Shown here: one piece after another, positions 1 through 5,702 of the stretch
Layout: every line of letters begins with the position of its first letter
Numbering within the stretch: the first letter of the stretch is position 1
Assembly (NCBI GenBank): GCA_038046765.1
Contig: JBBSVN010000020.1
Coordinates: forward strand, 1-31,620
Source of the DNA: Candidatus Micrarchaeota archaeon
Lineage (GTDB): Archaea > Micrarchaeota > Micrarchaeia > Anstonellales > Bilamarchaeaceae
Direction: 5' to 3'
DNA length: 31,620 bases
Made by a program: the position numbers and the translations under genes
The notes under the pieces: model-generated
What the model saw: the letters and a program-made list of their open reading frames with translations, nothing else
Told to the model about the DNA's origin: nothing
Database searches by the model: none

Positions 1-93
1 GCTCATAGCCAGCCTAAGAAAAGCATTAGGATTTAAGTACTTTCGGAAGTACTGGTTAAAAAACATTAATATACATATTAATACACGACTTCT

Positions 94-1935
94 ATGATTC
101 AGACTTATGATTTTCCAGCTAAAGCTAGATGGCGAGAGTGGATGGCAACACAAATAAAACAAACAAAGTTACGTGTAGCGCCAGCTTTTAGGCGAACACT
201 TGTTTTAGATCCTCAATTGTTAGAAGTAGAAATGCTTGAAGGATTAGGTTATAAACCAAAAAATATTTTAGTTGTAGAACGAGATCCTAAAGTTTTTGCA
301 GATTTACAAGAGCGAAACGAAGATCGCAAAAGAAAAGGTAAGGAACAAGTTGTTTTAGAAAACGCTGATCTTGAAGATTTATTTGTCGATATTATATTGG
401 GAAAGAAAAAGCACGGACCTTTTGAACATGTTTCGCTGGATATGCTTTGTCAGTTTTCGGATGCTTATCACGATTTATTATCTTTAATTTCAGCTGGCGG
501 ACTCTTAGCATCAGATTCAATATTTATTTCTAATTTGCAGGCTAAAAGGGAATCTACTTATGTTTTGGAAAGATATGATAAAGCTAATGTATTTCATGGT
601 CTTGCAGATAGTATAATTAAATTAAATGGCGCTCCATTGGAAGATCATAGACAAATTGTTCGAGAAACTTTATATATTCCAAGCGAAATTGAAAAGAGAA
701 AGATCGAAAGTCTAGATATAAAAGATATTAGATTCCTTAGTCGAATTGTTATGGAAATTGATCTTATTTCCACTTTTACTAATACCCTAAGATCCGGTTC
801 ATTCTTAATTAAATTTAGAAACTTTCTTTTACGCAACGGGTATTTTGCATGGGGTATTGAAAAGCTTGTTGAAAAACCCCAAAATAAAGAAGAAATAATG
901 TCATATTTTAGTGCAGAAGCAAAAATGCTACGAAGCAGATTTCAAGCAATTATAGAAGCTCAAAGACAAGCTGTAGGTGTGCTAAATCTTTTTACTGGTG
1001 TGCTTGAGCGTATATACTCTGGAGATTTTGTACCAAAAACCTGCGGGTTGTACTATTATAATTCTGTATCAAGAACCCCTATGTTAAGTGCATTTTCTCA
1101 TTTTACATACAACTCATATCGTCTTTCTTTAAATGATACTCGTTCAATTGAAGCATGGACTTTTGAGGGTTTGTATCGTTTCTACAATATCGATAAGCTA
1201 GGTTTTGGTGAACTTCCTAAACCATCTGGTAGGGAATATAGCCACGAAGTAAAAGTATTGTTAAAGGAAATAAAAAGAACCACGTTACTAAGACACGCGA
1301 TTAAAACTCAAGCAATCGCTTCAATAATATTTGATAATTGCGTAGAGGAACCCGTTTGCGAGGAATCTGCACAATCAGCTGTACAAATTGTTGCCACACA
1401 ACCACCAGAAACTGTTCTTGTTATTCAAGAACCGATAAAAACCAAATCTATTCTCACAACAAAAGAACAAGTTTACGAAGCGTTTAGCGAACACTTAGAT
1501 TGGAGCGTAAAGGAATTACAAGAACATTTTGATACACGTGCATTTACTACGGGTCAATTAGGCGCGTATCGCGCTTGGGTTACCATGCGCTCAACTGAAC
1601 TGAAAAATGGAAACGGATCTGCTAAATCAAAACCCGAATCGCTTGATCCCAAAACAAGAGATAAAATTCTCGAAGCTATACGAACGGGTTTATCAACCGA
1701 AGAAATTGTTAGTAAGTTTGAGGTTACAACTGGACAAGTTGGTGCGATAAGAGCGCATGCAACAATGAAAAGTTACGGTCCTGAAGTTGAGATCGAAGTT
1801 GCAGATGTAAAATTCTTTGGAACTGATAGGACAGAACTTGAAAGAAAAATTCGCGTGCTTCTTGCAAGGTACCAATATCCTGAAGATATTCCTGATGAAA
1901 AACTGATTGAAAGAGGGATAAGAAGAGTTTATTAA
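94..1935 (+). CDS. Hypothetical 613-aa protein: N-terminal SAM-methyltransferase-like region plus two C-terminal HTH-like repeats
   Basis: Long ORF. TLVLDP...ILVVERD...NADL...FEHVSLDM follows the strand order of a class I MTase fold. The motif TTGQxGAxRAxxTMxS occurs twice near the C-terminus. Confidence 0.55.
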   Translation: MIQTYDFPAKARWREWMATQIKQTKLRVAPAFRRTLVLDPQLLEVEMLEGLGYKPKNILVVERDPKVFADLQERNEDRKRKGKEQVVLENADLEDLFVDIILGKKKHGPFEHVSLDMLCQFSDAYHDLLSLISAGGLLASDSIFISNLQAKRESTYVLERYDKANVFHGLADSIIKLNGAPLEDHRQIVRETLYIPSEIEKRKIESLDIKDIRFLSRIVMEIDLISTFTNTLRSGSFLIKFRNFLLRNGYFAWGIEKLVEKPQNKEEIMSYFSAEAKMLRSRFQAIIEAQRQAVGVLNLFTGVLERIYSGDFVPKTCGLYYYNSVSRTPMLSAFSHFTYNSYRLSLNDTRSIEAWTFEGLYRFYNIDKLGFGELPKPSGREYSHEVKVLLKEIKRTTLLRHAIKTQAIASIIFDNCVEEPVCEESAQSAVQIVATQPPETVLVIQEPIKTKSILTTKEQVYEAFSEHLDWSVKELQEHFDTRAFTTGQLGAYRAWVTMRSTELKNGNGSAKSKPESLDPKTRDKILEAIRTGLSTEEIVSKFEVTTGQVGAIRAHATMKSYGPEVEIEVADVKFFGTDRTELERKIRVLLARYQYPEDIPDEKLIERGIRRVY

Positions 1936-1946
1936 TGTTTTTTACT

Positions 1947-1988
1947 TTGAACATTTATCGCCCTTTTTGTTCATTCTAGTGAACATTT
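1947..1988. repeat. Left copy of 42-bp direct repeat flanking the AAA ATPase gene
   Basis: ttgaacatttatcgccctttttgttcattctagtgaacattt is 38/42 identical to 3274-3315 and contains the palindrome TGTTCA-N6-TGAACA at 1968-1985. Confidence 0.9.
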
Positions 1989-1993
1989 ATAAA
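1986..1993 (+). promoter_or_regulatory. TATA box of the AAA ATPase gene
   Basis: TTTATAAA ends 22 nt before ATG 2015, the same spacing as other promoters in the window. Confidence 0.7.
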
Positions 1994-2014
1994 TATACTT
2001 CAACTAATATAATT

Positions 2015-3241
2015 ATGGTAGAAACACTAGAATTTATTAAAAATGCAATGCTTGAAAGCGAGGAAAAAGTTATTTCATATTCACGCCCTCAAAAAAGAGA
2101 CCTTTATGGAATCATTAAATTAAAGCCGAATCTAAAAGTAATTTATGGTCTTCGCGGTGGAGGAAAGACAACTCTATTGTTCCAAAGATACCTGGATTAT
2201 GAAAAGGGAAAACGTGTTTATTTTTCAGGAGATGAGCTTGTACTTTTAAAAATCTCAATTTATGAAATTTTCAAAAACTTAAAATACGCAATGGATTTAG
2301 GTAAAGATTCTGCCGTTTTTATTGATGAAATCACAAAAGTTCCAAACTGGGCCGAAGAAATAAAAATTGCATACGATTCCAATCCAAATTTACAAATTTA
2401 TATATCAGGTTCTTCTACAATCGATTTAGTACAATCAAAATCCGCATTAGCCAGGCGTGCTAGTTATCATCATCTTTTACCTATGACTTTTAGAGAATAT
2501 GTAAAATTAACAAGAAACATTGAACTTGAAAAATTCGATCTTTTTAGTGGGGATGTTTATACTCAAATCATACGTTACGACATATATTTGAAACAAAAGA
2601 TAAGTAATCCAATGGAATTATTCCATGAATATATGTCAAAGAGCCACCCATTTCTATTGGAGGCAAATCAGGATATGATTTTTGATCTTGTTGAAAAAAT
2701 AATATATGAAGATATTGCAAAATTAAATTCCTTTGATAGTTCTATATTAGAAAAATTTGAACGGCTTATTTTGGTCTTAGCCATGTCAGAAAAAACAACA
2801 TACGAAAACCTTGCAACTGATCTGCAGGTGTCTAAGGCAGTTATTGGCCAAATGCTTCGAGCATTAATTCAAAGTGGTTTAATAAAACAAGTCTTACCAT
2901 ATGGCAGCGGAAGAGTTGTCGGAAGAAAAAGTTGGAGGTATCTTTTTGTAGTTCCAGCAATTAGAGAACTTTATATGAAAAAAGGAGGCGCCGAAGCTTC
3001 TAAGATTTCTGGTTATATAAAAGAAGATGTATTTGCATCTCATTTAGATGAAATATTTTACCTTGATACTGGGCCAGATTTTATGTATAAGAATATTCAT
3101 TTTGAAGTTGGGGGGAAGAACAAAACCTTTGAGCAACTGGAGGGAGAGAAAAAAGGGTTCATCGTGTATGATGGATTTGAAGTTATCAAAAAGGATAATC
3201 TGATAAAGTTCCCATTTTATATTTTTCTAGCTCATTTATAG
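2015..3241 (+). CDS. AAA+ ATPase, AAA_14/DUF4143 (COG1373-like), with wHTH and C-terminal PD-(D/E)XK-like domain
   Basis: Walker A GLRGGGKT, Walker B VFIDE, SGSS, PMTFREY, HTH-like YENLATDLQVSKAVIGQML, and PDF...FEVGGK. Start moved from TTG 1967 to ATG 2015 using the TATA position. Confidence 0.9.
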   Translation: MVETLEFIKNAMLESEEKVISYSRPQKRDLYGIIKLKPNLKVIYGLRGGGKTTLLFQRYLDYEKGKRVYFSGDELVLLKISIYEIFKNLKYAMDLGKDSAVFIDEITKVPNWAEEIKIAYDSNPNLQIYISGSSTIDLVQSKSALARRASYHHLLPMTFREYVKLTRNIELEKFDLFSGDVYTQIIRYDIYLKQKISNPMELFHEYMSKSHPFLLEANQDMIFDLVEKIIYEDIAKLNSFDSSILEKFERLILVLAMSEKTTYENLATDLQVSKAVIGQMLRALIQSGLIKQVLPYGSGRVVGRKSWRYLFVVPAIRELYMKKGGAEASKISGYIKEDVFASHLDEIFYLDTGPDFMYKNIHFEVGGKNKTFEQLEGEKKGFIVYDGFEVIKKDNLIKFPFYIFLAHL

Positions 3242-3273
3242 TATCTAGTTTGTTCTGTTATTTGTTCACCAGA

Positions 3274-3315
3274 TTGAACATTTAAGGCCTTTTTTGTTCA
3301 TTCTAATGAACATTT
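3274..3315. repeat. Right copy of 42-bp direct repeat flanking the AAA ATPase gene
   Basis: ttgaacatttaaggccttttttgttcattctaatgaacattt. TGTTCA-N6-TGAACA palindromes lie at 3263-3280 and 3295-3312. Confidence 0.9.
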
Positions 3316-3822
3316 CTTACTTTCTTCTAATAGAAACTGCATGCAATCATCAAGCTTACCCTTCTTTTTATTCCATATTTCTACGATTTCTTTGTACGCT
3401 TTCATGTGTTTCTGGTATTCTGCAATTTTTACAGTTGGCTTTTGAATTCTAAATAATAAATTCGAAACGCTTGGGCAAAGTGGTCTTGGAATCAGTTCGC
3501 CTTCTGTACTTTTATATGGGTACATTCTGCAGCCTAAAGGCGCAAATTCGTGAATTGTACATCTATTGTCGCTGCCTAAAAAAGTACAAGGATAAGATTT
3601 TAGTGCCAAAACATATTCGCAAGGATATTTATCATCTTCTTTGACAAAACATTCTAGAACGGTATCATTATCTGTGTTTAATATGTTTGAATAAACTAAT
3701 GAGCAGAATTCTTCTGGTTTTTTGTTTGTATTCTGCATTATTCGTAAAATGTCAAAACTAGTTACAGTAATTAAATATCCTTTACAGCATTTGGCAGTAC
3801 AGAGCGAACAGGGGGAGACCAT
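3298..3822 (-). CDS. YkgJ-family cysteine-cluster protein (CxxCxxxCC, putative Fe-S/Zn)
   Basis: CSLCTAKCC at the N-terminus and PCTFL...CTIH..APLGCRMYPY. Confidence 0.85.
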   Translation of the reverse strand: MVSPCSLCTAKCCKGYLITVTSFDILRIMQNTNKKPEEFCSLVYSNILNTDNDTVLECFVKEDDKYPCEYVLALKSYPCTFLGSDNRCTIHEFAPLGCRMYPYKSTEGELIPRPLCPSVSNLLFRIQKPTVKIAEYQKHMKAYKEIVEIWNKKKGKLDDCMQFLLEESKKCSLE

Positions 3823-5128: not shown

Positions 5129-5350
5129 ATGTTGATGTCTATGATTCGAACAACTATACTAATTAGAGAGGATATATACGACGCCCTTATTCGTATGTTT
5201 GGCAAAAAGAACTTGTCTAAAGGTGTTAATGAGTCCTTATTACAGCACTTATTTAAGGAAAATAAAAAAAAGAGCATGTTCGGTGCAGACCCGTGGCTCA
5301 AAGATTCAGATTTAAGCGATTTGAGGGATCATGATGAGCATAACTTTTGA
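5129..5350 (+). CDS. Putative antitoxin (VapB-type partner of the PIN toxin)
   Basis: Small ORF overlapping the PIN gene, with an RHH-like RTTILIREDIY start and SMFGAD...DLRD end. The start could be 5129, 5135 or 5141. Confidence 0.75.
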   Translation: MLMSMIRTTILIREDIYDALIRMFGKKNLSKGVNESLLQHLFKENKKKSMFGADPWLKDSDLSDLRDHDEHNF

Positions 5351-5702
5351 TAGCTGGGCATGGATAGAATATTTTAAAGGAGATAAAAAAGGCACAATAC
5401 CAAAGAGGTACATTGAAGGTAATGATCAGATTTATACTCCTTCTATTTCGCTAATGGAAATAAAAGCAAAGTATATTCATGAAGGAAAGCCTTATCAGGA
5501 CAGAATAAAATTTATAGAAGAAAGAAGTAGTATTATTAATATCGATAAAGAAATTTCTCTAGAGGCTGCCACTCTTAAGGCAAGTGAAGGATTGCCGTCC
5601 ATAGACGCCTTAATATATGGCTGCTCTAAAAAGGTCAAGACAAATCTTTTAACTGGAGATACCCACTTTAAAGAAAAGAAAAATATAGAGTTCTTGGAAT
5701 AA
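5331..5702 (+). CDS. vapC: PIN-domain ribonuclease toxin (VapC family)
   Basis: FDSWAWIEY, SLMEI, IDALIY, LLTGDTHF: the acidic catalytic set is intact. Confidence 0.9.
   Translation: MMSITFDSWAWIEYFKGDKKGTIPKRYIEGNDQIYTPSISLMEIKAKYIHEGKPYQDRIKFIEERSSIINIDKEISLEAATLKASEGLPSIDALIYGCSKKVKTNLLTGDTHFKEKKNIEFLE

Follow-up and report, generated by a model that had tools for sequence, protein, structure and literature searches.

A single gene for an ATPase-nuclease protein stands between two copies of a palindromic operator module in the genome (G000; 1.5 Mb, 89.7% complete) of a tiny groundwater archaeon. Positions given without a contig name are those of the window, the whole stretch of 31,620 nucleotides that was analysed; the features of the locus are collected in Table 1. 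The 42-bp direct repeat reported in the initial annotation (1947-1988 and 3274-3315) is present, with 90% identity and a distance of 1327 bp between its copies, as are the four boxes beginning at 1936, 1968, 3263 and 3295, which keep a 32-bp step on each side and include one box with 2 mismatches. The right arms of all four boxes read TGAACATTT. The repeat unit had been drawn somewhat differently from its probable biological extent: the 42-bp repeat stands, but the unit is rather a 50-bp module of two boxes, of which the 42 bp are the best-matching part. The left module adjoins the stop codon of a 613-aa host gene and overlaps the BRE position, and on the other side the final five codons and the stop of a YkgJ-like gene fall within the right repeat. 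Intergenic host DNA at the cassette edges thus amounts to zero on both sides. The GC content of the cassette equals that of its flanks. Among 24 loci homologous to the YkgJ-like neighbour, none has a box at that end and none has the ATPase gene nearby.

Table 1. Coordinates of the cassette and its host neighbours in the window.
Feature	Position	Strand	Remarks
Left host neighbour	94..1935	+	613 aa; no Pfam family; stop directly before box 1
Left operator module	1936..1985	+	two boxes 32 bp apart; limits from the 48-element profile
Left box 1	1936-1953	+	outer arm degenerate, 2 mismatches
Left box 2	1968-1985	+	palindromic box
TATA-like box TTTATAAA	1986-1993	+	centre ~26 bp upstream of ATG; no downstream repeat
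ATPase-nuclease gene	2015..3241	+	ATG at 2015; 408 aa; PDC-S01-like
Predicted recognition helix of winged helix	2831..2854	+	helix in model; top-correlating 8-residue window
C-terminal nuclease-fold domain	2939..3238	+	conserved D, E, K (PD...EVGGxxK)
Right operator module	3263..3312	+	all four arms perfect; 21 bp past the stop of the gene
Right boxes	3263-3280 (box 1), 3295-3312 (box 2)	+	32 bp apart
Right host neighbour, YkgJ-like CxxCxxCC protein	3298..3822	-	convergent to the cassette gene

The repeat layout is real and no artefact of assembly, an origin that had been named as a possible refutation, because contigs bridge the junctions: contigs of three studies cross one or both with zero differences. 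Two further contig sets, possible sources of the assembly, span the entire stretch. The proposed scan for TGTTCA-N6-TGAACA found the perfect motif three times in the 1.5-Mb genome, each time at the window locus, and spacers of 0-5 and 7-12 bp between the same arms gave one perfect match in all over the whole genome. Records that carry the box type of the window are named Micrarchaeota.

Other parts of the window have features of their own. The protein encoded at 94-1935 is an orphan, with Atlas look-alikes among unnamed archaeal and viral proteins, weaker methyltransferase-like leads (<0.9) and two similar short motifs near its C-terminus. The first 53-55 bases of the window (1-54) also start contigs C1, C11, C12, C13, C16 and C20, and five other contigs terminate in a related sequence; a 1375-base contig with this sequence has a depth of 56 compared with 9-10, and the segment is likely the end of a collapsed multicopy element, an insertion sequence of about six copies. 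Positions 5129-5702 hold an antitoxin-like gene and a PIN toxin, and the part at 5264-5353 has a second copy, 88% identical, on another contig of equal depth.

The 408-aa protein matches AAA_14 (E 5e-26), six PDC-S01 models of PADLOC (best E 3e-24) and HTH models. Its predicted structure comprises an AAA+ ATPase, a helical domain, a winged helix and, at the C-terminus, a small further domain. Among solved structures the nearest in fold are SSO1545 and PAB2304 (Z 11.5-11.6; 236-243 residues aligned at an rmsd of 4.7-4.9), and the Foldseek list for the protein is headed by Orc1-DNA complexes (TM about 0.25). Modelled alone, the C-terminal domain reaches a pLDDT of 92.6. Its structure matches are mostly PD-(D/E)xK nucleases of middling Z, up to 6.1, and a Foldseek search with this domain returned no nuclease at E 0.001. 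The catalytic-type residues are conserved across elements (D and E in 47 of 47, K in 43 of 47) in a non-canonical motif, ExGGxxK, and the Walker motifs are conserved as well. The gene had been labelled AAA_14/DUF4143; DUF4143 scores under the Pfam cut-off in this protein (E 0.018), with weak matches in six of eight close relatives. In the accessible part of one source, DUF4143 is listed as PD-(D/E)xK, with no function assigned (PMC3424549). The protein is described here as a candidate antiviral PDC-S01-like protein of AAA+, winged-helix and PD-(D/E)xK-type domains. Pfam and NCBIfam scans gave no known transposase family.

Whether homologues have flanking repeats of their own, a question raised by the initial annotation, can be answered with yes for many. 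Homologue matches occur in 40 of 61 genomes, at 0-28 per genome; a related-locus search of genome contigs with the single protein as query gave no hit. The locus sample was made up of 36 loci and 40 more regions chosen among the higher-ranking of the 150 matches listed; it held 84 distinct genes, and 79 remained after three without a start call, one with a short flank and one artefact row were left out. With a repeat counted at an upstream/downstream score of at least 40, 55 of the 79 genes have one, against 1.5% of 6400 cross pairs. At least three of the 55 are not of the operator type, and 24 of the 79 are without a repeat. A second homologue sample scored in 8 of 19 cases, two of which are coding-end repeats. 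Two plasmid homologues, of Thermococcus and Aliarcobacter, looked at out of 27 plasmid records, have no repeat; the box pattern is absent from the viral contigs searched, and phage records gave one weak match. Within G000 itself, 8 of 12 family genes score compared with 4 of 867 other genes, the latter being three Schlafen-ATPase-HTH genes and one tandem pair, and each of the eight cassettes has a different site. The flanking repeat is thus a common, though not universal, trait of the family.

Some loci of the sample are peculiar in their arrangement. L011, L020 and L008 each show modules from different clades separated by no more than a few bases, an arrangement that looks like a stacking of cassettes along their module edges. 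In the clade of L026, L041, L059, L060, L061 and L063, the downstream module codes the last residues and the stop of the protein itself, and this module junction is common to six different host sites.

The extent of the module emerges from 48 elements set in unrelated sequences. Counted from the dyad centre, positions -24 to +25 show an identity of 0.81-1.0 between the two copies; identity then drops sharply, to background past about 30, and is about 0.3 beyond +/-35. Of 40 elements, 33 have a TATA-like word behind the upstream copy, and a single one has it behind the downstream copy. No target duplication was found in 40 elements; the longest is 4 bp, with a mean of 1.7 as against 1.9 in cross pairs. 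Each module can form a hairpin (z -3.4 to -5.2), as any palindrome would be expected to. Between related elements 17 positions are variable (selected for an agreement under 0.6; mean 0.50), and at these positions the copies within an element agree at 0.93 (34 elements). The copies must therefore have been copied from each other, or homogenised, after the elements diverged.

No sequence is common to all modules, and module sequence follows the clade of the protein. When overall relatedness is removed, the 8-residue window whose partial correlation with operator similarity is highest is the predicted recognition helix (r 0.34), in comparison with a mean of -0.005 +/- 0.10 and a maximum of 0.275 in 345 windows outside the HTH; the element pairs are related rather than independent, so that the correlation does not amount to a formal test, but the position of the peak is not built in. 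Because this helix tracks module similarity best, the winged helix of the encoded protein likely binds the module, as judged from sequence comparison.

Evidence for gain and loss comes from sites that are empty and from modules that stand alone. Syntenic empty sites were obtained for 3 of 11 loci queried, and the six orthologous sites found in congeners (for L077, L045 and L017) have neither gene nor module, which indicates that the module is borne by the element and is not a duplicated target. At no more than 73-86% identity, and with intergenic DNA that varies, these congeners do not allow exact deletions to be read, and an old module could have decayed in them; one of the empty sites has a 7-base match to the module end, within host coding sequence. 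No usable syntenic empty site was available for L059, L064, L046, L043, L063, L058, L082 and the window. For the last of these, the single-copy empty site that had been predicted was found neither in contigs nor among 176 genomes of the order. A cassette of the L045 type occurs at a different site in a second congener (L181) with an identical left end; the two have seven common bases past the right module, which a circle with one operator would not carry.

A protein-blind scan with the box of the window clade returned ten contigs, of which seven have the box beside a homologue of 54-57% identity and three have a lone module. Five of the seven contain both copies, whereas in the other two the contig stops short; two among the seven are near-identical strains. 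Among the lone sites, L079 has a homologue of another clade nearby, pointing away, and the contig of L086 ends 228 bp away from the module; no tRNA was called beside L079, L086 or L126. Five more lone modules are found in G000 (C3:31579, C3:62759, C3:85603, C3:127060 and C7:109476), between host genes and with no family gene adjoining, and belong to clades known from other genomes; a reversed-genome control gave none. The eight lone modules are probable scars of the solo-LTR type. The circle junctions that had been proposed as a check were absent, together with any empty allele, from the contigs of 8 runs, mostly of low depth, in which rare circles could escape; remnants of operator-to-operator circle junctions show no excess over cross pairs. 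Because sites in neighbouring species are without a module and lone modules are without a gene, these genes likely move as integrase-free units with their own control sites as ends. As a separate observation, the lone module of L079 lies at a leuS end, and at L080 a region with a small antitoxin-like gene (540-1260) lies between two copies of a leuS 3' end, beside a module.

The window's own copy is the most divergent case. Its modules differ at 10 of 50 positions, the most of 47 elements, where the median is 2. The differences concentrate in spacers and linkers (8 of 18 positions), with 2 of 32 in arms and tracts (Fisher p 0.002), and the box-1 spacers differ at four of six. At the 18 free positions the copies agree at 10, and different elements agree at 5-14, once at 16. 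Either the cassette is old, with both copies selected for binding, or a related element's lone module took up a circle; in either case the protein has to recognise the two ends. In left box 1, the outer half, which is degenerate (1936-1945), is identical to the first ten bases of a box of a sister-clade element, L011. This match may mark a hybrid junction or may be chance in AT-rich DNA.

Another family with the same bracket is formed by unrelated genes of the Schlafen(AlbA_2)-HATPase-HTH type, in which the box geometry is different. The bracket was scored at 16 of 29 loci, and at 13 of 28 once one artefact and two coding-end repeats are dropped. The layout as such therefore needs no PDC-S01-type nuclease. 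Over the 879 genes of G000, every protein found with the layout nevertheless combines a nuclease fold with an ATPase and an HTH. In the same genome, a DUF4258 gene and a zinc-ribbon/MazE-like antitoxin form a pair between Schlafen-type modules with a 49-bp repeat (L232; C2:95214-95912); none of six homologues of this toxin-antitoxin pair has such a site, and the pair is a probable passenger, possibly a non-autonomous one. A different kind of insert in G000 is the nucleotidyltransferase/HEPN-like pair (judged by eye) at C5:129185-130021, which is bracketed by a 63-bp duplication of a host gene 3'-end and is of the long-target-duplication type.

The locus is best explained, with a probability above even, as an autorepressed cassette that has its ends set by the operators when bound, enters box-free sites and leaves by recombination between its copies. 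The window cassette would have been inserted whole into the chromosome at a box-free site, with bound protein defining both ends. Two dimers on the upstream module would cover the BRE and repress the gene. The AAA+ domain would bring together the protein on both modules, with nicking beside the module, and host repair would connect the ends with AT-rich DNA close to where host genes terminate. Recombination between the copies would then release a 1327-bp circle and leave one module, and the same process would keep the copies alike. The cutting may be the work of the protein's own nuclease, a serious candidate that stays short of an even chance, or, somewhat less probably, of host enzymes acting at the protein footprint. 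An RNA intermediate was considered and rejected: the TATA box is outside the repeat, and an RNA copy could therefore not rebuild the promoter. A wider and tentative proposal is that in Micrarchaeota the PDC-S01-type proteins could be transposases of an undescribed class of one-gene elements, which would bind their own operator copies at both ends, nick beside them and insert without target duplication, and that the Schlafen-ATPase-HTH genes could follow the same life cycle independently, with passengers.

The main competitor of the autorepressed cassette, unlikely but deserving attention, is host recombination alone, by which copy-derived circles would re-enter at lone modules or microhomology, the protein would shield the ends, and the ATPase and nuclease would serve in defence. 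Such a process would account for the same layout in an unrelated Schlafen family, for the toxin-antitoxin pair bracketed by the 63-bp host gene-end duplication, and for the degree of likeness between the window copies at free positions, which is the outcome expected if a circle had entered a foreign lone module; lone modules occur commonly, and PDC-S01 is a defence candidate in the available text of its description (PMC12988326). The median copy difference of 2 in 50 is, however, too low for foreign-module entry as a rule, the empty sites lack modules, and scores among the other genes of G000 are confined to the Schlafen-ATPase-HTH genes and the tandem pair. It is still less probable that the downstream copy is purely regulatory, causing gene looping or blocking convergent transcription, with the repeat kept by selection and not by movement. 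Arms are indeed better kept than spacers in both copies (mismatches of 5.2% vs 8.2%), the upstream copy overlaps the BRE position, and 11 of 40 elements have the end of a convergent host gene no more than 40 bp from the right copy, a count without a control. Yet spacer and linker bases are copied too (0.93 vs 0.50), both outer limits are module edges at unrelated sites, lone modules exist without the gene, and the toxin-antitoxin pair enclosed by two Schlafen-type modules has relatives that lack sites of this kind.

Two further readings are very improbable. Insertion with a long duplication of the host target, as for restriction-modification genes, fits the repeat length of 40-90 bp and the lack of a mobility gene described in the consulted portion of PMC2853133, but a single copy was present at none of six informative empty sites (three related cassettes), and the repeat follows the clade of the element and not the host site. 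The other, which was part of the initial annotation, holds that the boxes are Xer/dif-like sites on which a tyrosine recombinase acts in trans. In its favour are the inverted arms with 6 bp between them and the hairpin folding of the modules, a property of any palindrome. PF00589, however, has no match in G000 (89.7% complete) and matches in 14 of 14 control genomes; the modules share no common sequence, vary by clade and track the helix of the protein, the spacers of the two copies differ, as in box 1 of the window, and empty sites lack the site. Xer-type recombination is thus unlikely because no tyrosine recombinase was found and the box changes with the protein. What survives of the cassette reading in that annotation is a minimal cassette with a likely winged-helix site and, as the lone modules suggest, loss as a unit.

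LTR elements also have element-specific direct repeats that are alike within and different between elements, and leave lone copies (solo LTRs). The cassette resembles them in its element-specific repeats and lone copies, but it has no reverse transcriptase or integrase, its TATA box is outside the repeat and there is no target duplication. pdif (Xer-flanked) modules and integron cassettes are single genes with short palindromic sites, which are served by one recombinase of the host or the element and have a common site consensus. The cassette is likewise a single gene between palindromic sites, but here the sites follow the cargo protein and a tyrosine recombinase was not found. With SSO1545, PAB2304 and Orc1/Cdc6 the encoded protein has AAA+, helical and winged-helix domains in common; it differs in an added C-terminal nuclease-fold domain and in sites that flank its own gene. 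For restriction-modification genes with direct repeats of 40-90 bp, amplification and release through the repeats have been proposed (Furuta et al. 2010, PMC2853133, as far as its text was available). There too a nuclease gene lies between direct repeats of >30 bp with no mobility gene inside, but the repeat is a host target that is present once at the empty site, whereas here it is the element's own two-box site.

PDC-S01 is given as the fourth most common candidate defence system, with about 39,000 detected copies (9986 archaeal and 29,494 bacterial), in the accessible portion of its description (PMC12988326); S01 is not named in the main text of the PDC preprint, as available in part (10.1101/2024.01.29.577857). 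PDC-S01/COG1373 (AAA_14 + DUF4143) likewise has an ATPase fused to a PD-(D/E)xK-type domain, although in the protein studied here DUF4143 is below the cut-off. In the parts available, the description of PDC-S01 mentions no operator, flanking repeat or mode of movement (PMC12988326), in contrast to the operators and repeat of the window cassette. No description of an operator-gene-operator layout was found in the literature covered, which includes few subscription papers. These findings give each PDC-S01-type protein a predicted 50-bp binding site, and the natural series of helix and box pairs makes the biochemistry testable. They also offer a gain-and-loss cycle for defence genes that needs no integrase, a question since long-repeat-flanked restriction systems were described. 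Lone modules would then be a record of the cassettes that a genome formerly held.
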